Source: Heteronotia binoei (lineage: Eukaryota). From it: DNA of 64,000 bases. How positions within the stretch are numbered: position 1 is the first letter of the stretch; each line of letters starts with the position of its first letter. Both the position numbers and the translations under genes were made by a program. This document shows, in pieces, positions 14,340-62,302 of the stretch. A model generated the notes under the pieces. The model did not search any database. It had not been told where the DNA came from and saw only the letters and a program-made list of their open reading frames with translations. The stretch lies in NCBI RefSeq assembly GCF_032191835.1, contig NC_083236.1, positions 33,046,001-33,110,000 of the forward strand. Direction: 5' to 3'.

Positions 14340-14642
14340 CTTGAGGAATGAGTGCAGATCAGCAAGGGTGGGTCTGGGATTCTTGGTTTCATTGGTGATC
14401 TTTGTGTTGGCATAGTGCTCGTAAGCCGGCACAACGTCAATTGTATTGTAGCCGAAGGTCCGCATATAGAAAGTGCTGTTGGTGGTGAGGTGGTTGGCTT
14501 GGGTGGTGTCGTATGGGGCCGTATCTGTCTGCCCGTAATGCATCCTGCCGTTGTCCTCAGTGCCGATCAGGGTGCTGATAGTGAACCTCCCGTTGGAGCG
14601 TGCTGGGTCAGTATTTCGTTCTGACACTGGCAATTCAGCCAT
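14340..14642 (-). CDS. SLC12A3: Na-Cl cotransporter NCC, coding exon 1 (303 bp)
   Basis: Translates MAELPVSE...GRFTISTL...[24 protein letters not shown]...[12 protein letters not shown], matching the NCC N-terminus (RFTI SPAK/OSR1 docking motif and TFGYNT phospho-cluster). ATG at 14642-14640; donor AAG|gtaaag. Confidence 0.97.
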
Positions 14643-19639: not shown

Positions 19640-20675
19640 TGAATAAAACAAAGCAGTAGACAAGTTGTACCTTTAAGACCAACTAAGTTTTATTCAGAAT
19701 GTAAGCTTTTGTATGCTCTAAGCAGACTTCATCAGACAAAGTTGGAATGGCAAGCAGCAGTTCTTAATATAAGTTGGCAGTGAGTTGGTATGTAGAAGCA
19801 TGGGAATGTTTTTAGCAGATTAAAAGAATCACAAATAGGGGTCTGTGTTTGTTAGTTAATGTTGTTAACTGGGCTGAAAAACATTGGAGGGTGATAAAAA
19901 GCAGATTGATGTCCTAGGTCAGGTGTGAAGTGCCATAAATCTGGGTAACATTCTGGCTTTGTTAGTATTGGGTTTAAATAGAGGGCATAGTTACTCAAGA
20001 GGTTATAACATCATTATAGTTTGCCATTAGAAAAAAAGGAATGCATTAAAATACAGTGGGTTAGTATATGTAATAAGATATTACATATCTTATTATGGGT
20101 TAGTATATGTAATAAGATAAACAGCCAATATCCCTTGAGTATGTCAATACAAAAAATCCCCCAATATTCTGATGTTCTGTTCTAAAAGAGAAATATGGTA
20201 CATATTAGTTAGCCATTAGAAAAACAGGATACATTAAAATATAGTGGAAGGTGGGTTAGTATATGTAATGAGATAAACAGCCCATATCCCTTATTTGAGT
20301 ATGTCAATACAAAAAATAAATTATTCTGATACACTGTTCTAAAAGAGAAATACATTGGAATATTGTGGATGTATAGTGACTCAGTGCGAATTGGTTTAGC
20401 ATATGTAACAAGATAAAAAACCAATATCCCTGTTCAGTCCTAGGGAGGTATTCGTTCCAAGTTTCATAACAATTTGTAATTCAGCAATTTCTCTCTCCAT
20501 TCTATTCTTGAAGTTCCTTTGCAGTAAAACAGCTACTTCGAGGTCACCCATTGAATGCTCAGGAAGATTAAAATGTTCTCCGACAGGTTTCTCAGTTCTG
20601 TAATTCTTGATGTCAGATTTGTGTCTATTTATCCTTTGGTGTAGGGTTTGTCCTGTTTGCCCTATGTAGAATAAA
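19640..20675 (-). mobile_element. Penelope-like element 3' remnant with GIY-YIG endonuclease C-terminal part
   Basis: 20671-20396 translates without stops: FYIGQTGQTLHQRINRHKSDIKNYRTEKPVGEHFNLPEHSMGDLEVAVLLQRNFKNRMEREIAELQIVMKLGTNTSLGLNRDIGFLSCYIC*. It is followed by a pseudo-LTR-type tail. Outer boundaries approximate. Confidence 0.85.
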
Positions 20676-20932
20676 GGTTATTTGCTCCGCCCTTCAGTGG
20701 CATCACTTTAAAAAAATGACAGTAAATATGACTCTGCATCTCTCCATTTGTCAAGCTCCTTCTCTCTGCCATGTAGATTACTTCTCAGGAGCCACCAACT
20801 TCAACATTAAAGGACTTTGTTATTTTTCAATTAATTAGAATCTCATGTTACACTATTCTCAGTTTTTTTTGCTTTGTAGACTTACCATTTCCACTTCGCA
20901 ATTATCATCCATGCTCCTATGTGCTGACAAAA

Positions 20933-25677: not shown

Positions 25678-25858
25678 CTGGGGTTTCTTTGTAGCAGGAA
25701 CTCCTTTGCATATTAGCCCACACACCCCCATGTAGCCAATCCTCCAAGAGCTTACAGGGCTTTTCTCTCAGGACCTACTGTAAGCTCTTGGAGAACTGGC
25801 TACATCAGGGGTGTGTGGCCTAAAATGCAAAGGAGCTCCTGCTACAAAAAAAGCCCTG
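25678..25858. mobile_element. Fully palindromic MITE related to the CAGGGCTTTT family
   Basis: The left and right halves are inverted copies (GTAGCAGGAACTCCTTTGCATATTAG...CTAAAATGCAAAGGAGCTCCTGCTAC; inner AAGAGCTTACAG/CTGTAAGCTCTT). Confidence 0.75.
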
Positions 25859-28800
25859 TGAACAAGCATTAGGACAAGACAGTAACAGGCCCCAGGTTCT
25901 CCTCAGAAGAAAATCTCCCTGGACAAAACTTGATGTCCTATCCACAATGGCTCTCACTAGTAGGCTATTGAGAGACCCACACAAATCAACAGCTCTGCAA
26001 AGAACATTTTAGTTCCCACCCCACTCCCACAGGATGGAATGCTTTGCTAGAGCATCCCCTCTGAACGCATACCCAGGAGACTCTGTAGGTGGGCAGCAAA
26101 AAACTAGATTTCCCCGCCCCCCAAGTTCCCACTCCCTCCCAAACCTATCTGAGCATGTTCACTACCCCAAAACGTTCAGAGAAGTCACAAGTGTATTAGA
26201 GAAGAAAACAAAGAGAATGGAGGAAGGGATTAACCTGTTCAAGCTCAGAAGAGCCGCCTGCTGGAAGACCTTTTGGACTGGACAGGAGGGAATTTGCTAT
26301 TGTGGCCCTGTAGGGTTTTCAAAGCAAAATTTGTTCAGAAGTGGTTAGTGATTGCATGCCTCCGTGTAGCCACCCTGGACTTGCTTGATGGTCTCACATC
26401 CAAGTGCTAAGTACAGGGCCAACCCTGCTTACCCTTTGAGATCTGAGGAGATGGGGCTAGCCTGGGCTATCCAGGTCAGGACATAACGTTCACGTTTGCA
26501 CAAGAATAAATCACTAGATGGAGCCAGTGCTGCTGGACCTCCCTGTCTTTGCAGAATTCATAAATAAAGACAACAAACTGATTTTCCAGTACGAAATATA
26601 CACTACTTTGGTATCTGTTGAAGTGTACCTTTGGGTGTTTCTGCGTGGAAATAAATGGGCAGGAAGTCTGAAGGCACTGAAAAGTGGGAGGGCTTTATAA
26701 ATAAAAAGGACCTTAACTCTTGATTGCTTTTTAATACTATCCCCCCCTATCATATAGGATTTTTGGTTTAGGGCTTTAAAAAGCACTATGATTCTTTTCT
26801 TGATACTACAAGTTTTTCAAATTGTTACATGTTAAGAATGCAGTTCTACTCCTTCATGCATATATTTTTTAAAAAAATCTAATCTGGAAATATCAGTAAA
26901 ATGGAGGCTGGACTTTCAGTTGACTTATTGGTTTCATTGTATAATAATAAATTCATAAAGTGATTCAACTATGCTTTTAACGGTGTATATTTTGTGAGCA
27001 GTCTTGGGCATTGTGGAAAGAGGGGAAATAAATATTTTTAATATAAAGTTTTTTACACTATAAAAACCACTTTCCCCACTCTTCTCTCATTCTGCAAACT
27101 GTAAAACAGAATTGTTCAGGAGATCTTTTCTATAAAAGGAATAAGGCTATGGTATAATGCAAGGGGGAGGGAGCTCTGAACAGAGTTTTAGTCCACTGTT
27201 TATTGTATGCACTGCTTTGCTCTTACTTTGTTTTCTACGTCTGTCATTCTGCTTTTTGCATTGTTTATGGCATGTCTGATATTTTATTTGCATGGTTTCT
27301 AATTTTTGAAATCTTAGTCCTATTGCATTGTTTGTTGAATGTCTCATATAATTTCATTGCATTGTATTGCACTGCATAATTCACTTTGTGCTTCAGCAAT
27401 AAAGGCAGCCTATAAATAAGTAATAAACACACTGATTTTCCCACTGGTACCAAACCAGATCTCTTAACTTTAAACTGCCTTTAAGTGATGTTTCTAACAT
27501 CACCTATAAGTCCTTATCAGACTTATACTAGTTTCTTACTTCCGCTGTTCTTGAAGCTTTATAATATAACACCCCCCCACCCCCACATTCACACCCTTTT
27601 GTTCAGTGGTCTGGTTGACACCTTCCTAGCTATCCTATAATATTTCCCAGCCAAATACATTTCTTAAACAATTTCTCCCACATTTTATGAACAGAGGGTT
27701 TTACCAACAGATTAATCGATGATACAGCCACCTTTAATGCAGCAGATCAACTGCATCCCTGAGAGAGGAAGTGTTTTCCAAAATGCCAATTCATTTTTAA
27801 TTTCCGGGTAAGTTTTTAGATGATTTTCTTCCATGACAGAACCAGTATTTTTTTGCTTCCAGATCCCTAAATACTGCATTGATTGAGACTTCCAAAGAAT
27901 CCAGCATATTTTAGCAATCGAGTTTTTTGTAAGCTGTTGAGACTTGTTTTTCTTCAATTAATCTTATATCCACATACAGAAGAAAACTTGACATACAGAA
28001 GTAAACCCTATTATTAATTATGTATTGCGTATCTGGTATACTGTAAACCTTGACTTGGGTCCAGGATTATTTCATTTACCCTCACTATGAGCAATGAACA
28101 GATACAGGATAGTTTTGGGGGAAGCTTTAGATATGGAGAGAAAACAAATCTTGGTATCTTAGAAACACTGATTATAGAGCAACATATTATCATATGATAA
28201 AGTTATATTTAGAATGGGTGACAGCACACCTCCGCTTTTTCAAATTAGATGTATAGTTCAGATCCTGTTACATAAGTATGGTTTCAGACAGAAAATGTCT
28301 TTTGAGCTTCTAAAGGGAAATAGCTGAAATATACTTACGAATCAATTTGGATACCAATATCCCCAATTTTACCAGTGAGTGGGAGCAAGAACTATAGATT
28401 GACATCAGCACAGAAGATGAGGGATAGAACTGGGGAAAATGACCATCTGGGGAGAGCAAAAACAAAAATACCCCGATGCTTTTCTAGGGAATTAGCAAAT
28501 CTCAATTTAAAATAAAAATAACCAGACTTTACAAAAAGTGCCCAAAATGTTTTCTTAAACTGGGTCAGAACAAAACATTTAAAGCAGCTGCTGAAGCCCA
28601 ACAGTCATTCAACTGCAAAAAAGTAAAACAATATTGAGAGTCAATAAGGAGTCAACTTAAACCCCAGGTCCCACTCCAGGGTTCTACCCTTTTCCAGCAA
28701 TGCAGTGGACATGTCACTTTAAAAAGAATTTTAATAGCTGCTGGATTCACTGACAAATCTGACACAATTTCCACAGGCTGTAACCACAAGTTAGGTTAGA

Positions 28801-33659: not shown

Positions 33660-35037
33660 CTACAGGCAGGAAAGAGAAATACAAACATTATGAAGGTAGG
33701 TGGTGTTTAGGGCCTATTTTGGTTCATCACCTACCAACAGGAGAGGCAGGTGCTTAATTCTCTGCCAGTCTGTGAAATTACCTGACCAGAGACAGTCTAA
33801 GTTTGAGCCATATTATACTCACAGGAACACATGACTGCAGGTCAGTGGCTTTTCCAGGGTTCCCTCTTTAAGAACAGGGGAGCCATGAGTAGGCCTACTG
33901 GGCTTCACCAGTGTTATTCATGAGCTGAGCATTTAACCCGCTACACACTTCATACCACCCTGAGGCTGTGCATAGCAAAGGAAGACTGATAGCTGTGGGC
34001 AACTGACTTTCAGTGGGCAGTGAGTGAAGAGATGAAAGAGAGCAAAGATTAACACAGAATGCACAGGGAACTGTAGAAAATAAAATGCCTGAGTCCTTCC
34101 TTCTGCATTGGAAGCCCTGTATGGACTCTGTGTCCTCTAAGCTTTCTGCAAAACTAGCCTACAAATATTTAAACATTTTTATGAAATCTCAAAAGAACCT
34201 GACAAGCAGTTCAGATGACCACAACTTCTGCACAGGCCACCAGAAAGTGCCTGAATGCTCAGGTTTCACAATTGGACGGGCAGCTCACAAGATGCTGACT
34301 TCACAAATAATGTTCAAAGCAAGCACCAGCACCATCTCACAGATTCCTGACTATTCAGCACTTAGCTGCACAGGATTCCTGTTTCAGCAGAGGAAGTCCA
34401 AACAGTGGCTACAAAGTGAATGAAGATTAATTACAAATAAGGAGCTACTGAGACTCTCGGAGGACTTATGGAAGTCATCCTAGTGAGATGCCCACCAAAA
34501 TCTGGCCACAGGCCTGGTTTGCTCCTGAGGAGGTTGGTGCCAGCTACAGCTCCCTTCAGTAGACTGCCCTTGCCATTACCCCCATCTTGGCATCCGCATG
34601 GGTTACTACTTTTTGGTCTCTAACCTCCTGTATACTTAAAAAACCAGCATGACCGGCAGACATTTTACAAGTACAGCATTCCCCTTCTCTGCACCTTAAA
34701 ACTGCAGCAGTTGACTGGGTCAGCAAGATGTTGTGTTGCCCTTTGTGAAGGACAGGCTACAGTAGAGATGTGACCCAATCATTCACAGCGTGGTGTTCAG
34801 GGGCTCCACAGTGCCCACCCATGTGTTTCCTCATGCCCACTTCTTCCCAAAGGCACTGCAGCTTCAAAGCAAACGGGAGGTACCCTTTTGTAGAACCTTC
34901 CAATGTTCTGTGACCCGGTAGCTCCCATGCCTCACCTGCTCAACGTGACAAACTATTCTGGTATGGTGCCCATCACCTGATCTCAAAACTTCAGCAGTAC
35001 CAGCAGGTTCAATGAGGTTGGGGGCTACTGTCATAAC

Positions 35038-35229
35038 CAGGGCTTTTTTTTGTAGAAAAAGCCCAGCAGGAACTCATTTGCATATTAGGCCATACTCCCT
35101 GACATCACCATGGTTTCACACAGGCTTTTTGGTAGAAAAAGCCCAACAGGAACTCATTTGCATATTAGGCCACACACCTCGACACCAAGCCAGCCGGAAC
35201 TGTGTTCCTCCTCAAAAAAAAAAGCCCCG
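35038..35229. mobile_element. hAT-type MITE (CAGGGCTTTTTT terminal repeat family)
   Basis: Ends CAGGGCTTTTTTTT and AAAAAAAAAGCCCCG. The 8-bp TSD GTCATAAC is at 35030-35037; its right copy is split by the copia insertion. Confidence 0.85.
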
Positions 35230-35233
35230 GTCA

Positions 35234-35631
35234 TGTCGGAGCGGGAGTAGCAGAGTGAGGGAGATGACTTGCCCGACACAGGGCTTCAGGAAAGAAAATC
35301 AGGCAGACACGTGCAACTAGTGCCAAAAGGTGTATTAACATATATACACAACAAGTGCTCTCTTGTGCAGTCTATACAATATCACCTCCACGGACAAAGT
35401 GCTTCGCCTAACCACCATCTCACAGGGAGAGACCTGTGTGATGCACACACAGATCATATATAGTCCAAGCAGCCAATCCTGGCCATGCTGACTCAGCAGA
35501 TTGCATCACTTGGCTTCTGCCGGCTCAAGCCGGTCTGCTGATCAGGTCACTGTGACCTAGCCTGGCAGCTAGATCACCAGCTGTCATACTGTGGCTGTCA
35601 GACTGGGTTTATGTAGATTCTTGCTCCAACA
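35234..35631 (-). repeat. 3' LTR of the copia element (398 bp)
   Basis: Identical to the 5' LTR and preceded on the minus strand by a purine-rich tract. Confidence 0.97.
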
Positions 35632-35642
35632 CACCTCCTAAT
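35632..35642 (-). promoter_or_regulatory. Polypurine tract (short)
   Basis: Minus strand ATTAGGAGGTG directly abuts the TG of the 3' LTR. Confidence 0.75.
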
Positions 35643-35716
35643 CTATTTAAACCCAGTGCACCAAAACACTTTACACAGTTTACATACATGTCCACCAGCA
35701 ACATTACAGTTCATAT

Positions 35717-38377
35717 TTACGTAGCTCGGAACCCTTTCCGGAATTCGTTCAGGAACTCATCATGATTGTAAAACACATCATCGTGTTCCTGTTCAGCCAG
35801 CTCTTTCAGACGCTTGGCTTCAGCCTCCTTCTCCCTTGCCTCGCACTCTGCCACCCAGGCTTTCCATTTCTTAGCCTTTTCTTTTAACATTTCCTCAAAT
35901 CCGGGTGGGTCTGGATTGACAGTCAGAGTGACATAGGGACACTTGTACCTAGCGGGACGTTGGCCTTTGGTGGACCTGGCAGACACCCGTGGCCCTGTGC
36001 TTGGACCAGCTTTGTCTTCTTCGGGTTGCTCTGTTCCCACCTCCTGGGCTGGTTGCTCTGCCCCTGTAATTGGGTGTTGAACCTCCTGACTCTCACACTT
36101 TACCTCCAGTTCCTGCATTTGAGGCTCTGCCTCCTGACTCTGCTCGTCAGGCTCTGTGCCAGCATTCGGCTCACCTTCTCCAGCCCCACTGGGTGCCACC
36201 TCCTGGGCTGGAGTTCTGGGCTGCGCTCCAACATCGTTATCGCTACTTGGCAGCAGGACAAATTGTTTCTGCAAGGAGTGCAACCTTGGCCAGCTGCTTT
36301 CTTCATTGAACTGGGCACTCTTATTAAGTGTTATCTTGCTTTTGCTATTGCAGAAACGATAACACCTGGCCCTTGGCTTGTAGCCCAGAAAAATTAGGCT
36401 CTCTGCCCGGACATCCCCCTCCCCGCTACTCGTGGAGTGGATGCCAACCCGAGCCCGTGACCCAAAGACTTTTAAAGAACTCAAATCTGGGGTCTTGTTC
36501 AACAGTAACCTGTAAGGCACATTTTTCACAGTATTACACCAAACCCTGTTTTGCAAAAAAACGGCTGCATGTATGGTTTCTGCCCAATAGGTCATTGGCA
36601 GTTGTGCATCCTCTAACATGCAATACATCACATTCTGCAATACAGCCCCATGCCCATTTTCTCGGGGCGTTGCTGGGTTCGTCAGACGGTGGGCAATGCC
36701 CTTGTTTTCCAGCCAACGTTTCATCTGGTTAGATAAGAATTCCCCCCCTCTGTCGGTTTGTACAGCTAGGAGATTAACCCCTAATTGTCTCTCCACTGCT
36801 TTGACCCACTTGGTGAATGTCTTATACACCTCAGACTTATGCACCATGGTGAAAACCCACGCGTACCTCGTGTGGTCGTCGGTGGCCACCAAGCAGTATC
36901 TCCTCCCCGACAGACTCTTTGGCAATGGGCCAATAACGTCTAAATGGACTAGTTCCAGGGCTCGTGTGCTTTCCCTTGAGCTTTCTTTAGCAACAGCACA
37001 CGCCTTGCTTTTGGTCTTCTTGCAGACCTGGCAATCCAAGTAACATTTGCAAGGATTTACTTTCAAACTAGGCACGAGCTCCAGGGTTTTCTTTAACGCC
37101 CTAAATCCGCAGTGCCCAAGTCTCCTATGGAGCAAATGTATACAATTATTGTGCACAGGCTCATTCGACACCTGAGCCACCTGGGCACAATCATTCTGGA
37201 CCACATACAGTTTACCTTCCCTCTTTCCTGTCACAAGCAACTTTCCCCCACCTCCCAGGATTTTGCAGCAGGTTTTCTCAAATCTCACCTGGTATCCCTG
37301 GTCAAACAGTGTGCTAACACTCAACAGGTTAGACTGCAGTGAGGGTACATACAACACATTTTGCAACATACATTTCAGTGCAGGAAATTCCACATTGCCT
37401 GAGCAAACAGAATTGGCAGTGGTCCCATCAGCCAATCTCACATACTTATGCTCAGGACTGTCAATGTTTTTCAACAACTCCTTCTCGCAGCAGAGATGGC
37501 TCGTTGCCCCGGAGTCTAAAATCCAAGCAGACCCTGTGCTCTCTACTGCAGACGTGACCAGCCGGGTTGCTTCCTCACACGGGCTGGCGGTCCTCCGCTC
37601 TCGCCGCACACGCCCCCGCCTCTTCTCCCTCTCAGGGCAAGCTCGGAGCAGGTGCTGCGACGACCCGCATCCATAGCAGCGACGGACTGCAAACGCAGTC
37701 GGCTCCACTTCCTCCACCTTCGGACGCCTGCCAGCAGCAAAAGCTGGCTCATTCTTGGCTGTCTTCCCGGACACACCGATAACAGCACGCTGCCTGGCCG
37801 ACACCCCCGGACAGCTCACGGCCGCAATTCTCTCTTGGAAGTCAAGCATGTGGGCACAGACGTATTCCATGGTCAGGGTCGCTACGTCCACCGTCTCCAG
37901 AGAAGTTATCAGGGGAGTGTACTCAGGTGGCAACGACGACAGCAAAATGTACACTCTGTCGTCTGGAGCTACAGTCTTGCCTCTTGCCTCCAGCTCAACG
38001 AAACAGTCCGTTAGCCGTTTGATGTGATCTTTCACACACCCTCCAGCCGGCATAACGGTGCGGAACATCCTCCTTGTCAAGGCCATGAGGGAACCAGCAG
38101 TGGTGCTAACATGCACCGCACTCAACGCGTCCCAGGCAGCCTTGGGAGTGTCCTTCCCTCGCACATAAACCAGCTGGTCATCTCCTATAGATAGCACTAT
38201 GTTGGCCAGTGCCTTATCCGATAACACAGTCTCGGCAGGAGATAAGTCAGCAGGGGGGTTACTCACGAACAGCCATTGCCCTTCACGCTTGAGGTAGTGT
38301 TGCATTCTCAGGCTCCACACCGCGTAGTTGGCTGAGGTGAGCTTCTCAACGGCTACTCCAAGCTGTTGCTGAGCCAT
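35717..38377 (-). CDS. Copia polyprotein Gag-zinc knuckle-protease-integrase, 886 aa, ending where RT would begin
   Basis: KLTSANYAVWSLRM gag N-terminus; CX2CX4HX4C (C234-C247); WILDSGATSH protease (D288); HHCC H417/H422/C449/C452; integrase D480 and D542. No YVDD RT motif and no RNase H. Confidence 0.95.
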   Translation of the reverse strand: MAQQQLGVAVEKLTSANYAVWSLRMQHYLKREGQWLFVSNPPADLSPAETVLSDKALANIVLSIGDDQLVYVRGKDTPKAAWDALSAVHVSTTAGSLMALTRRMFRTVMPAGGCVKDHIKRLTDCFVELEARGKTVAPDDRVYILLSSLPPEYTPLITSLETVDVATLTMEYVCAHMLDFQERIAAVSCPGVSARQRAVIGVSGKTAKNEPAFAAGRRPKVEEVEPTAFAVRRCYGCGSSQHLLRACPEREKRRGRVRRERRTASPCEEATRLVTSAVESTGSAWILDSGATSHLCCEKELLKNIDSPEHKYVRLADGTTANSVCSGNVEFPALKCMLQNVLYVPSLQSNLLSVSTLFDQGYQVRFEKTCCKILGGGGKLLVTGKREGKLYVVQNDCAQVAQVSNEPVHNNCIHLLHRRLGHCGFRALKKTLELVPSLKVNPCKCYLDCQVCKKTKSKACAVAKESSRESTRALELVHLDVIGPLPKSLSGRRYCLVATDDHTRYAWVFTMVHKSEVYKTFTKWVKAVERQLGVNLLAVQTDRGGEFLSNQMKRWLENKGIAHRLTNPATPRENGHGAVLQNVMYCMLEDAQLPMTYWAETIHAAVFLQNRVWCNTVKNVPYRLLLNKTPDLSSLKVFGSRARVGIHSTSSGEGDVRAESLIFLGYKPRARCYRFCNSKSKITLNKSAQFNEESSWPRLHSLQKQFVLLPSSDNDVGAQPRTPAQEVAPSGAGEGEPNAGTEPDEQSQEAEPQMQELEVKCESQEVQHPITGAEQPAQEVGTEQPEEDKAGPSTGPRVSARSTKGQRPARYKCPYVTLTVNPDPPGFEEMLKEKAKKWKAWVAECEAREKEAEAKRLKELAEQEHDDVFYNHDEFLNEFRKGFRAT

Positions 38378-38523
38378 CGTGCCGACTCCTCCTCACAGCT
38401 GGCTGCCGACGTCCCTCTGGCTCTCAAACAGAGAACGGTGGTGCTTCTGTGTCCTTCACCGGCGTTCCTCGCCTCCGGCTCTTTCCAAACTCACAGTCAG
38501 CTCAACTCTCAACTCTCTCCTCC

Positions 38524-38554
38524 GCGCAGCGGAACCGCCCTGGGCCCATAACCC
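38524..38554 (-). promoter_or_regulatory. Primer-binding site complementary to the 5' half of initiator tRNA-Met
   Basis: Minus strand GGGTTATGGGCCCAG immediately after the 5' LTR (the Drosophila copia-type half-tRNA PBS), extending to a 28/31 match with tRNAi-Met nt 10-40. Confidence 0.92.
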
Positions 38555-38952
38555 TGTCGGAGCGGGAGTAGCAGAGTGAGGGAGATGACTTGCCCGACAC
38601 AGGGCTTCAGGAAAGAAAATCAGGCAGACACGTGCAACTAGTGCCAAAAGGTGTATTAACATATATACACAACAAGTGCTCTCTTGTGCAGTCTATACAA
38701 TATCACCTCCACGGACAAAGTGCTTCGCCTAACCACCATCTCACAGGGAGAGACCTGTGTGATGCACACACAGATCATATATAGTCCAAGCAGCCAATCC
38801 TGGCCATGCTGACTCAGCAGATTGCATCACTTGGCTTCTGCCGGCTCAAGCCGGTCTGCTGATCAGGTCACTGTGACCTAGCCTGGCAGCTAGATCACCA
38901 GCTGTCATACTGTGGCTGTCAGACTGGGTTTATGTAGATTCTTGCTCCAACA
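38555..38952 (-). repeat. 5' LTR of the copia element (398 bp)
   Basis: No mismatch with 35234-35631 by eye; both copies give the same 64-aa spurious ORF in the track. Confidence 0.97.
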
Positions 38953-41186
38953 GGTCATAACCTATTCCACCTTCAACTAGCTACTTCCTCTAGAACAGGA
39001 AAGCGGCATCTGGAAAAAGGGTATGACCATGCCTTTGAAGCTGACCTTCTTCCACACAAGAGAAACACAGCACAGATATGCCCGTTATCCCTTTCTCCAG
39101 AGTTAAGGCATGATGCTGAAACTAGAAGAAAACTACAACTTGGATCAAACTAAGTCCCAGTAAAACTGGACTGCCCCCCATTCCAATTTTTAATCTGAAG
39201 TCTGGATTTTTTTAAAATTTGCAGATTAAGGATTATTTCATTCTCTCCCATGGGCACAAGAGGTGGGAAATGTACCACCTTTAGACTCAGCTGAAAGTTT
39301 AGAACCAGGATTAATGTGCTGAAAAGGAGCTGGGCCCACAAAGTCAAACTGCAAGGGTCATTTCTGCAGCCAATCAGGCTGGAAACTGATAAGCAGATGC
39401 TGGCTGAAAACCTACAAAATGGATGACTCAGGAAATCAAAACGCTCCCAGACATGAAGCAAATTTGTCCATTTTCAGGCCTTTTATCTCCAAGTTTACTT
39501 TGCAGAGGGAAACAATTGCCTTATTGACAAACCTGCTTTAACGTATGTTGGAAAAATTACAAGTCATTTTTTTATTTGGCTTTTTAAAACAAGAAGATCT
39601 AGAAGATCTTCCCCTTCCCACAAGCAGTTTGCTTTCCAACAGGGACGCAACACGGTAATTAACACTGGTCCCTATTGGCTGGAAGGGTCAGCAGGATCTC
39701 AGGGAAAAAAATAATTACTGTTTTAAATGAATTTTTAATAATTCTCTGAGAGGCTGGTTTTTCAAAAGAGACACATGAATAATGAACAAACCTATTTTTT
39801 TCCTTCTCAGTATCACAGCTCTACAATATTGGCCAGACCCCGCCCTTTGGAACAAACTGAAGTGCTTGATCTTGTATGCACTTTTGGCCTGCTGTGTGAG
39901 CAGAAGCTCCAGTGGGCTCAAAATACCCTGGAGGAGGAAGTCCCATGCTCTAGAGTGCTGGACAGTGCTTCATATGCACAATGAGAATGAGCACAAGCGT
40001 TCCCCAGTGCTGCAAATAACAGGGTGCCGTCTGTGACCGTGGGGCTCTGTGTGTACATCCAAAGCCTTGAGGAACCCTGGAGAATAACAGTGTTTTTAAG
40101 AGAGGAAGCCACTTTGGGGCAATAGCTTTTCAGAGAGACAGAAATGTAGCCAACTTCCCCGAAGGTATGTCAAAAATGTAACACAGTGAGCTGGATTTAA
40201 ACTAAATTGGCAATTTCCACTGCTTCTCCTTCCTGTCACAGACTCCCCCCAAAAAACTGCTCCTCAGGGTCCCCTATCTCCCCATGAGCAGCGTTTCATG
40301 GAGATCAGTGACCTGCAGGGGGAGAGGCGAGGCAGGAAAGTTCCAGTGTGCTGATGGAAAATTTTGTCTGGACCCAGCCCAGGTTCTCTAATAGAGCTTA
40401 ATGGCATCCCTGAGGAAGGCTAAGGCTGCTCCGGTACTTTTGTCATTCCGCACAATGTGCAAAACAGTAATGTTCAGGGGGACACTTTTAAAAAGACTTT
40501 AGAAGTGTAGCAGAATGGCCGAGAGGGCACTTTTATGATAGAACAGGATTGTAGTTAATGGCAATGATTATTCTAACCGTTATCCAGCTATTACCGCAAC
40601 GTCTTCACTGTGCTTTCTTTGTAACCCCACTCACTACTTCATCTACAATATCATCTTGTCTTAGGCAGTTTGCTGTTTGCATTGTCTTTTCATTCTGTAC
40701 TAATGCACCGTTCGTTGGCTTCCTTTGCTGTATGGATACGTTGTTTTTATCTGGCAACCTGCCTCAAGTCTCGGTGAGGCAGGGTATAAATAAATAAAGG
40801 GTATAAATAAATAAAGCAAACAAATACCCCCAGTGGAATGCATCTAGCCACTGCTGAAAGGGAGCTGCAATGTGCTATTACAGTTAGGTTCAGCAGCACT
40901 TTCCATGCTCCCAGGACTGAGCTCAAAGGGGACCATGGCCACCAACTAAGAAACAGTAAGGTGCTTCTTCTCCAGCTATGGGCTGGATCCTGTTGTCTTT
41001 TCCACTGGCAGCAGTGGGAAGAGAGGCCTCTTTGGACCACTGAAACAAGCTATGCTAGTAATCACAGGACCTACATGAACAAAAGCCAGGTGGGATGGGG
41101 GCAACAGTGAGGATGATAATCGGGTGAGACCAAACAGAAAAATTGATAGGATACACCCCAGACTGTGAAGAATACATGCCTCATGT

Positions 41187-41386
41187 CAGGGCTTTTTTGG
41201 TAGAAAAAGCCCAGCAGGAACTCATTTGCATATTAGGCCACACCCTCGATGCCACCATTGTTTCACACAGGGTTTTTGTAGAAAAAGGCCAGCGGGAACT
41301 CATTTGCATATTAGGCCATGCCTCCCTGACACCAAACCAGCTGGGAATGTATACCTGCGTGTTCCTGCTAAAAAAAAAGAGTCCTG
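41187..41386. mobile_element. hAT-type MITE, same family
   Basis: Same terminal repeats and the internal duplicated GGAACTCATTTGCATATTAGGCC unit; flanks CCTCATGT/ACTCATGC (6/8). Confidence 0.8.
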
Positions 41387-41800
41387 ACTCATGCTAGTCC
41401 TAACCATTTTCCATGTTTGTAGTGTTGCCTAAGAAGGTGGATCATGCAGGCGAAAAACTCTTGTGTACGTGGAATGGCCTTTTAACCGTGTGAGACCCTT
41501 GGTCTATCAAGGTCAGTGCTGTCTATTCTGAGCGGCAGTGGCTCACCAGGATCTAGGAACTGGTTTTTCACTTCAATTGCTCCCTTGGTAACTGGAGATT
41601 CTGAGGCTGCAACCCAAGACTTTCTGCTTGTCAAACAGATTCTCTGCTGCTGCTGCTGAGCCATGGCCCCTCTCCTGAGCACAGAGAGCATGGGAAACGG
41701 GAGCCCCTACCATCAGCACCACCATCTTCTAGAATCAGCATAGCCTGGGCTGTGACCTAGATGACAGGGAAGGATGACAGACAGCACTGTGGCAACTTAC

Positions 41801-41884: not shown

Positions 41885-43286
41885 CTGTAATGGAAGATGC
41901 ATGAATAACAGCAGATAAGATCAAGTAGAGACAGAATAGAGCTACACTGATTTGAAAAAGCCCCATACTCATGGGCGGGATGTGCAACAGTGTGGTACAG
42001 CCTGATCTCGTCAGATCTCGGAAGCTGAGCGGGATCACTACTTGGATGGGAGAAGCCACCTAGGAAGACTCTGCAGAGGAAGGACCTCTGTTTCTCACCT
42101 GCTCTGAAAGCCCCTTGCCGAGGTCACTGTAAGTCTGTTGCAACTTGTGGCCATATACATTTTACTTTATAGAGAGACAGTGAGATACAGAGAGAAGCAA
42201 GTTTTTTGTACTATACCAACATATTTATTATACCATCCTTTGCTCTGATCAAGCTGATTTCATTTTCCATTTTCCATTGTACCTTTGGATCCTGGTTCCC
42301 AACAGGTCCTTCTTGGTAACACCCCACCCACCATCTGTCCTGGGTATAAGAGATGATGGATCTTCATTCTTGTTTCTATCTGACCAAGTGAGATTTGACT
42401 CATGAAAGCTTATGCCCTAAAAAATTGTGTTGGTCTCTAAGGTGCTGCTTTAATTTTATTAAATTTTATTAAGATTCACATAGGGACCAACATCTTTCCA
42501 AGCAATACAATAAGAAAATAATCTATATCATTTAAAATATTTCAACTGTAGTCTCTTAAAAAACAGAAAAACAAATTAAAATGGACTTGCCAACAAGGGG
42601 CAGGGAGTGAGAAAGCAAAAAAAATGAGAAAAATATTTCATTAACTTTATATAGATCAAACTGATGTTGCAACAACAGCTATGAACATATGAAGCTGCCT
42701 TACACTGAATCAGACCCTCGGTCCATCAAAGTCAGTATTTCCGTGCCTATTTGCCAGGACCCTTTTTAGCTGGAGATGCCAGGGATTGAACCTGGGACCT
42801 TCAGCTTACCAAGCAGATGCTCTACCACTGAGCCACCGTTTCTCCCCTACAGTTACCAAAGATGCAATACTGACATCATTGCAGGAATTTCCTTTTGTTC
42901 TTAGAAATATTCTAAAATAGGATACCAAACTGTTATGAAATCATTATAATCAGTGTTGTCTGTGTCTTCTGTTTTTGATAAGTCATGCTGAACTCGAATT
43001 TTATATATATATATATATATATACACATATATTTGCTGCCTCTCTCTCTCTCCCTCTGATTCTTACACAAAATGATAAACCCTGAATCAAAGTTGCATAA
43101 TCCCAGTAAGAGACTCAGGCCCTCATATGATTGGACAAAGACAACCCAAGACCCAGCATCACAACGGAGACCTGGGATTACCTTCTTCATGTCTTGGCTG
43201 TGAGTGTACCAAGAGAATCGGGCTTGCAGGAGTGCTAAGCCAAGTGAAACAAGGCAACTTGCAAGGGGAAAAAATCTGAAACTTAC

Positions 43287-47877: not shown

Positions 47878-48039
47878 CAGGGCTTTTTTTCTGCTGGAAC
47901 TCACAGGAGCGGAGCTCTGTCTGGGGCAGCTTGCTGGCCCGACTTGCCATGCAGCAGCCATGTGCTCCCAGGCCAGGCAGTATGGCCCAATATGCAAATG
48001 AGTTCCTGCTGGGATTTTTTTCTACAAAAAAAACCACTG
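47878..48039. mobile_element. hAT-type MITE, same family
   Basis: CAGGGCTTTTTTT start and AATATGCAAATGAGTTCCTGCTGG...AAAAAAAACCACTG end. Confidence 0.7.
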
Positions 48040-61270: not shown

Positions 61271-61469
61271 CAGGGCTTTTTTTTGAGCAGGAGTGCACAG
61301 GAACGCAGTTCTGGCTGGCTTGGTGTCAGTGGGTGTGGCCTAATATCCAAATGAGCTTCTGCTGGGCTTTTACTACAAAAAGGCCTTGTGAGCAACAAGG
61401 GTGATGTTGGGGGTGTGGCCTAATATACAAATGAGTTCCTGCTGGGGGTCTTCTACAAAAAAAGCCCTG
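61271..61469. mobile_element. hAT-type MITE, same family
   Basis: CAGGGCTTTTTT...AAAAAAAGCCCTG with 8-bp TSD ATCTACAT/ATCTATAT. Confidence 0.85.
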
Positions 61470-62302
61470 ATCTATATACAAAAGTTCCCATAGCTGGAAA
61501 GGGTCAAAAGGCATCTAGGACAAGACATGCCACTGATTAGCAGCTCTTCATAATCTAAATATAGTGCTGGGGGGGTCAAGATCAACAAAGTGGTAGAGAA
61601 AAGGGAGGAAGAGGTTTCCTTCTGGCACCCCAAACAGGCTGATGAAACTTCTCCCACCCAGGAAAATCCACCCAGAAGCCTCCAAAAAGAAACTACTAGA
61701 TATATTAGGCCAGTAGCATTCAACATCACTTTTGCCTAAGACATAGCAGGAAATGGGAAGGAACACAAGACCCTATAACACTCCCCACCCCTCACCCTCG
61801 CTTATGTTTTTTCTATCCAGTTTTCCACCTTAAGGAGCAATTCTTGGGGATACTTTCTATTCAGCTCTATGACAAGTATAGGAACAGACTGCAGGGTCAG
61901 AGCTTGAAGGTAGTTCTGGATGCCAAGTAGTTTCACACCGTGCTGAAGCACTGCTCACACCCCCTTCCCCACTGCAGGCATTTTCACATTGTTACAACTA
62001 CTCTGAAAGCTGCCTTTTCACAGTATTGAACTAACGACCCAGCGCCGCTCATGCAAATGCAGCTCCGGGGTCTGAAGGGATGAGGTAAGCAGCACAGATC
62101 AGAAATGATTAGGGGCTTCCATCAGTTTCAAGGGCTCGAGGGAGTTGCACAAATCATTCTTGGCGTGGAAAGTAGGTCTGTGCCTAAGGGTAAGGCAGAA
62201 TGGATGGGAGAGCCCAGTTTGCAGCATGCGGGCTGGAGAAACAGCCAGCCGAAGTTCCTGAATGCCAGTTACTCATCAGGCACACAGGAGCCAGCTTCAT
62301 AC

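Follow-up and report, generated by a model that had tools for sequence, protein, structure and literature searches.

A putative estrogen- and Maf-responsive LTR promoter in a semi-autonomous gecko Copia element lacking reverse transcriptase

A Ty1/Copia element of 3,719 bp, bounded by two 398-bp long terminal repeats (LTRs), can be found on the minus strand of a 64,000-nucleotide stretch of the genome of the gecko Heteronotia binoei (contig NC_083236.1, positions 33,046,001 to 33,110,000; hereafter the window, to which all coordinates refer). The U3 region of its LTRs harbors a perfect estrogen response element (ERE) and a perfect Maf recognition palindrome (T-MARE) ahead of CCAAT and TATA boxes, and its only open reading frame (ORF) is devoid of reverse transcriptase (RT) and RNase H. 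The explanation favored here, held to be moderately probable from the sequence, is that the LTR is a host-factor-driven promoter, likely responsive to estrogen and Maf, in a semi-autonomous, RT-less Copia element. The features of the element and of its host locus are as follows.

35229–35233: target-site duplication, left copy, 5 bp
35234–35631, minus strand: 3' LTR, 398 bp, with TG...CA ends on the minus strand
35632–35648, minus strand: purine-rich tract (PPT), ahead of the 3' LTR
35717–38377, minus strand: single ORF, 886 amino acids from Met (protein P0001)
38540–38553, minus strand: primer-binding site (PBS), one base past the 5' LTR
38555–38952, minus strand: 5' LTR, same sequence as the 3' LTR
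38953–38957: target-site duplication, right copy, 5 bp
30587–63393, minus strand: exons of NUP93
33660–41797, minus strand: host intron (second-last of NUP93), oriented like the element
25811–25861, 35046–35209, 41186–41333, 47974–48031 and 61299–61470: copies of a dispersed repeat

The direct LTRs with their TG...CA ends, the 5-bp target duplication, the PBS and the PPT are all those of a Ty1/Copia element, and the sequence of the PBS is presumably a match to the half of the initiator-Met tRNA used by Drosophila copia. As PBS, ORF and purine tract all point along the minus strand, the motif-bearing region would correspond to U3, an assignment drawn from this polarity rather than from a mapped start. 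The two LTRs (35234–35631 versus 38555–38952) are identical at 398 of 398 positions, which, together with the intact target duplication, suggests a very young, possibly polymorphic insertion; its arrival in the NUP93 intron was thus likely recent. Neither a further copy of the element nor a solo LTR was found within the 64-kb window. According to tblastn with three squamate NUP93 proteins, among which that of Gekko japonicus gives the top identity in most exons, the element is inserted in sense orientation between the exons 41884–41798 and 33659–33531. SLC12A3 starts at 14642 on the minus strand, about 20.6 kb downstream of the element. Splice or poly(A) signals in the LTR could interfere with NUP93.

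Within the LTR, the following features can be distinguished.

35435–35449: fourth of the perfect inverted repeats; lies immediately below the TATA box and folds into a hairpin
35457–35462, minus strand: TATA box candidate
35473–35477, plus strand (inverted relative to transcription): CCAAT box, 10 bp above the TATA box
35486–35498, second copy at 38807–38819: T-MARE in U3, a Maf-dimer palindrome with an AP-1 core
35520–35533: third perfect inverted repeat, no recognized motif; broken in diverged X7 reads
35540–35586, minus strand: block alignable in relatives, with the ERE, the E-box and the first TALE-type motif; both flanks drop out
35544–35558, second copy at 38865–38879: perfect 15-bp IR3 ERE in U3, its center 89 bp above the TATA box
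35578–35583: E-box
35581 and 35595: two TALE-type 6-base motifs

An earlier note on this DNA had listed the ERE, the Maf palindrome, the E-box, a CTGTCA pair (the TALE-type motifs above) and the CCAAT and TATA boxes, and every one of them was recovered at its place. Its reading of these motifs as a promoter-like layout on the minus strand is borne out by their order and spacing (ERE, 45 bp, MARE, 8 bp, inverted CCAAT, 10 bp, TATA) and by the direction of PBS, ORF and PPT. The gap of 10 bp between CCAAT and TATA is shorter than usual. The presence of the motifs in both LTRs had also been pointed out; reverse transcription makes both copies identical, so that the pair amounts to a single observation, and treating the LTRs as independent support was rejected. 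Within the window, neither the ERE nor the Maf palindrome is found outside these two LTRs. Dinucleotide shuffling of the LTR (20,000 shuffles) produced the 15-base ERE twice, its 13-base core eight times and the Maf palindrome four times, rates which apply to motifs named in advance and are uncorrected for the number of motif types that might be noticed. The chance near 2e-5 proposed earlier for an ERE-type match has therefore to be replaced by a measured rate of about 1e-4 (20,000 shuffles), and the Maf 13-mer, formerly believed the rarer of the two, turns out not to be rarer than the 15-base ERE. The bare AP-1 core is common (2,973 of 20,000 shuffles). The shorter motifs mean little alone, given that the E-box occurs 31 times in the window, the TALE-type motif 24 times (plus strand), CCAAT 75 times and the TATA hexamer 30 times.

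The ERE conforms to the IR3 consensus, as had been claimed, being a perfect palindrome with a preferred spacer. In the spacer data reported in PMC2853111, two of 64 spacers are found at over 40% of the EREs bound by the receptor, and this is one of them. From the same source it appears that only 51 of 2,310 human perfect EREs are bound by the estrogen receptor in MCF7 cells, and a perfect match is therefore weak evidence of use; the earlier idea that every new insertion brings along two hormone-responsive enhancers would accordingly be a conjecture. With regard to the Maf site, the consensus T-MARE is likewise confirmed, the 13-bp palindrome, the AP-1 core and the GC flanks all being present. 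The further proposal of an NRF2-type ARE, tuning the element to oxidative stress, did not survive inspection: the base preceding the AP-1 core is a C on both strands, and the NRF2-sMaf element (CsMBE/ARE) is reported to need a purine there (PMC9756947). The site is thus better described as a Maf-dimer/AP-1 site than as a consensus NRF2 site.

The U3 region is also rich in palindromes. Four perfect inverted repeats, each arm being at least 6 bases long, lie in it against a shuffle mean of 0.56, a number reached in 8 of 2,000 shuffles and, with four or more, in 2 of 150 flanking tiles; two of the four match no recognized motif. Position 35441, within the fourth, is changed in X1, X7 and X8, three of the RNA runs described below. 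As RNA, U3 folds only marginally better than its shuffles (z -1.88, 8/200; MFE frequency 0.011), and a structural role of the U3 RNA was set aside on account of this z value.

Relatives of the element can be found in RNA sequencing runs of other organisms. Four of the nine listed runs (X1, X3, X7 and X8) were compared with one LTR plus the interior, the others listed, X2, X4 (share 0.17), X5, X6 and X9, forming no part of the evidence; 40 of 535 sequence differences are listed, and counts of differences inside the motifs and the ORF refer to those listed. A contig from X1 covers the full LTR with 16 differences in 398 positions and no gaps, and runs on into the PBS. None of its 14 listed differences (16 in total) falls inside the ERE or the MARE, a sparing that is not significant (P about 0.3). 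A more diverged subfamily in X1, X7 and X8, represented by reads and one contig, aligns at 85% identity or more only over the 47-bp block 35540–35586, with loose alignment ends at 35540 (X1, X7) and at 35586 (X1, X7, X8); of the 30 letters past each alignment end, compared by eye, about 20 agree with the window beyond 35452, about 19 beyond 35540 and about 18 beyond 35586. Also by eye, the diverged flanks still keep the CCAAT context (15 reads in X7, 8 reads in X8), a TATA-like core and, in 3 of 3 cells, the second TALE-type motif. Diverged relatives from two other organisms can still be aligned over the ERE block, and the palindrome 35520–35533 is broken in them. These sequences show signs that diverged relatives retain the ERE block, the CCAAT box and a TALE-type motif; with 40 of 535 differences listed, X3, X7 and X8 may nonetheless carry changes inside the ERE or the MARE. 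The matching reads, 144 in X7 and 400 in X8, each from about 6% of the run, are mostly below 95% identity and occur in both orientations; contigs from RNA libraries can be DNA. The RNA-run reads yielded no transcription start site, strand bias, or start or end peak.

The coding region consists of copia Gag, a zinc knuckle, protease, GAG-pre-integrase, an integrase core, an SH3-like domain, a linker and a C-terminal tail of its own, and its Pfam matches (PF14223, PF22936, PF13976, PF00665, PF25597) follow the order typical of Copia, the score of PF13976 (27.9 bits) being slightly under the cut-off of 28.4. RT and RNase H are missing: PF07727 was not matched in the Pfam scan of the ORF, tblastn with the RT region of four full-length relatives found no match in the element (4/4), and the alignment of P0001 to the full-length Copia protein P0002 stops where RT begins. 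The integrase core retains both Asp and shows a four-residue gap at amino acids 581/582 of P0001; 136 of 146 homologs carry four more residues at 575–590, with a Glu in that stretch in 132 of 146. As the gap takes in the Glu of the homologs, the integrase is likely inactive. Compared with an autonomous Copia, the element therefore has no RT/RNase H after the integrase and an incomplete set of the three acidic catalytic residues. A tree built from 27 proteins on their first 760 residues, with 690 columns, places P0001 beside a Copia protein of Podarcis lilfordi with a support of 0.998. Squamates are reported to be unusually rich in Copia, chiefly of the Mtanga clade (PMC11889832). Membership in Mtanga is judged by RT/RNase H, a domain absent here, and the placement of P0001 rests on the Gag-to-integrase tree. 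No short relatives of residues 560–891 were found among 1,114 candidates, and the C-terminal tail had no match in any fetched protein.

These losses are not private to one copy. In X1, a contig covering 35628–36716 aligns with no gap across the RT-less junction as well as the integrase gap, and a contig from X3 is likewise without insertion at the integrase gap, so that the losses belong to a family. Among the 40 of 535 differences listed, 10 of the 17 in the ORF are synonymous, where 28% would be expected to be so (P 0.007), four differences upstream of the start codon being left out of the test. With RT loss family-wide and, judging from the listed differences, the remaining ORF under constraint, the RT-less, integrase-gapped element is by its sequence a semi-autonomous family. 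A candidate for its longer partner is a 2,202-nt contig of X1 (record 4), which aligns piecewise and has about 1.1 kb of additional sequence between 36150 and 35662; this contig and 11 reads of X8 (loose end 36652) depart from the window sequence exactly at the integrase gap. A protein-based search returned no relative in viral contigs (0 of 3 stretches) or metagenome contigs (0 of 85). Nine loci brought up by pattern scans (8 metagenome, 1 viral) were rejected as chance matches, with no likeness beyond the pattern and no encoded relative.

On these grounds, a mechanism can be proposed in which the estrogen receptor would bind the U3 ERE in chromatin, a large Maf or an AP-1 dimer would occupy the MARE, and both would activate transcription via the CCAAT and TATA boxes below. 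The combination of ERE and MARE may thereby time transcription to estrogen-exposed, probably ovarian, cells. The resulting RNA would supply Gag and protease, RT and integrase being borrowed from a longer partner with the same LTR signals. The benefit would fall to the element, and NUP93 or SLC12A3 would be influenced, if at all, as a side effect. The rarity of ERE and MARE in shuffles, the preferred spacer, the order of the motifs in U3, the block that remains alignable in relatives and the existence of LTR precedents argue for such a promoter. The argument is weakened by the non-significant sparing of the motifs in X1 (P about 0.3), the palindrome-rich U3 and the small fraction of perfect EREs that are bound (51 of 2,310), as well as by a corn-snake LTR devoid of both motifs, the RNA runs without a start site or strand bias, and the short CCAAT-TATA gap.

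The motifs may instead be by-products of a palindrome-rich U3, i.e., hairpins or template-switch products with no regulatory role, an alternative judged unlikely, albeit the weightiest of the rivals. Palindromic motifs could arise accidentally in a sequence prone to palindromes. The excess of inverted repeats (4 against a mean of 0.56, two of them unrecognized), the fold z value of -1.88, the P of about 0.3 for motif sparing in X1 and the lack of correction of the shuffle rates for the number of motif types all speak in its favor. However, the unrecognized palindromes are broken in relatives in which the ERE block can still be aligned, the ERE has the spacer preferred by the estrogen receptor, and the fold makes no clean local hairpins of ERE and MARE in a convincingly stable structure (MFE frequency 0.011). 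It could also be that the sites are used without being estrogen-inducible, with small Mafs repressing at the MARE, ERR or COUP-TF sitting on the ERE, and somatic damping as the outcome. ERR and COUP-TF bind ERE-like sites, and the reads of relatives in the RNA runs are of modest depth. Moreover, small-Maf homodimers are reported to prefer MAREs and to act as repressors (PMC9756947). Against this, a full palindrome whose spacer is the one preferred by the estrogen receptor would suit receptor dimers better than a monomeric ERR, and in the fly precedent described below a large Maf acts as an activator. On balance, such non-inducible use seems quite unlikely.

Tuning to oxidative stress via NRF2 would be compatible with the AP-1 core and the small-Maf half that are present, all the more as CNC-sMaf heterodimers are reported often to bind both types of element (PMC9756947). 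Set against this are the C in place of a purine on both strands and the report, from the same source, that MAREs are favored by Maf dimers and bound more weakly by NRF2-MafG (PMC9756947), which together make this route highly improbable. Co-option of the copy as an estrogen-responsive enhancer of NUP93 or SLC12A3 would fit with its position in a NUP93 intron, with the start of SLC12A3 at 14642 on the same strand and with the existence of mammalian LTR-derived ER enhancers (PMC7145552). Identical LTRs and an intact target duplication nevertheless suggest that the insertion is very young and possibly polymorphic, with no sign of fixation or of a host effect, and co-option is considered improbable in the extreme. 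A bolder extension of the favored promoter reading would have a Copia family wired to the estrogen receptor and a gonadal Maf, transcribed in follicle cells and sending env-less particles to the oocyte via pyriform-cell bridges, with the RT-less form as supplier of Gag and protease; this scenario is regarded as very doubtful. Pyriform follicle cells with intercellular bridges to the oocyte are peculiar to squamates. A soma-to-germline route has been described for env-less elements in flies (10.1101/2025.03.14.642691).

LTRs with host hormone or Maf sites are already known from other systems. ER motifs can be found in the ERV1 LTR consensus sequences MER41 and RLTR14_RN, and MER41, MER49_4D and RLTR14_RN resemble the gecko LTR in having a palindromic ER motif that is spread by retrotransposition (PMC7145552). 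These are, however, ERV1 retroviral LTRs with ChIP evidence, whereas the gecko element is a lizard Copia without env whose sites are predicted. In fly ovarian cells, the large Maf Traffic jam binds the LTRs of gypsy5 and mdg1 and activates both, and deletion of its motif lowers reporter output by 80% and 70%, respectively (PMC12094058). As in the gecko element, the Maf site lies in the LTR promoter, but gypsy5 and mdg1 are Ty3/gypsy elements with reporter-proven half-MARE cores, whereas the gecko has a full palindromic T-MARE beside an ERE, read from its letters. Among Copia elements, ONSEN/COPIA78 (PMC5059998) similarly carries host transcription-factor sites in its LTR that time its activation; unlike those of the gecko LTR, they are experimentally proven and bind a plant heat-shock factor. 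Other squamate Copia elements, such as those of the Mtanga clade (PMC11889832) and a 5,832-bp Copia of the corn snake (PMC4657000, PMC11948899), share the domain set and order and the young intronic insertion, from which the gecko element differs by its 3.7 kb, its lack of RT/RNase H and its gapped integrase. One LTR of the active corn-snake Copia, inspected by eye in the material available from PMC11948899, has the same CCAAT-TATA layout and neither an ERE nor a MARE, which means that not every squamate Copia possesses the module. With regard to the loss of RT, the wheat elements RLG_Sabrina_SA and RLG_WHAM (PMC9744471) likewise retain an intact Gag-protease ORF and depend on a partner; they are plant Gypsy elements that have wholly lost the integrase, whereas this vertebrate Copia has an open but gapped one. 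Open-access full texts yielded neither an ERE in the LTR of a vertebrate Copia or of a lizard nor, more generally, any host hormone or Maf site reported for such LTRs, and the accessible portions of the leopard-gecko, rattlesnake-W and frog LTR literature hold nothing on an estrogen-responsive Copia.

Provided that the sites are functional, a compact ER and Maf module would be carried through the gecko genome by a young, mobile family. This would be relevant to female-biased transposition and, in a group whose sex determination is labile, to the turnover of estrogen-responsive enhancers. The U3 module provides a test object of 150 bp for reporter and ChIP work, and the RT-less, integrase-gapped and constrained ORF adds a vertebrate case to the semi-autonomous LTR families. 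Should the follicle-cell route prove true, a hormone-timed path from soma to germline would be at hand, as well as a candidate reason why 66% of metazoan Copia copies, according to the count in PMC11889832, belong to squamates.

A second RT-less Copia ORF was encountered in a cluster of four members (P0240), all of 845 amino acids, in Logan contigs of 3.1–3.8 kb. It is 28% identical to P0001, has no integrase gap and is basal in the same clade; it possibly represents an independent loss of RT. The laboratory-standard ERE oligonucleotide, which we take to derive from Xenopus vitellogenin A2, resembles the gecko site beyond the palindrome. Over window positions 35539–35558 (minus strand), the ERE and five flanking bases are identical to this oligonucleotide at 20 bases (PMC3697183, PMC2266794), which may reflect chance or convergence on a strong site, capture from a host promoter being conceivable as well. 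The letters of the target duplication equal the core of the ERE half-site, likely by chance.

Around the element, Pfam scans took in 281 of 300 flanking stop-free frames and found the Nup93 and SLC12 exons; below the cut-off, the flanking ORFs matched GIY-YIG, W_rich_C and Furin-like. The weak GIY-YIG match (E 7e-4) lies beside short direct repeats at 20057–20677, a region that is possibly a Penelope-like remnant. The tRNA-Thr called by ARAGORN at 42771–42843 (minus strand), in a NUP93 intron, is likely the head of a tRNA-derived SINE. The dispersed repeat listed above, with an internal duplication of about 80 bp and an octamer-like core, directly adjoins the left end of the element.
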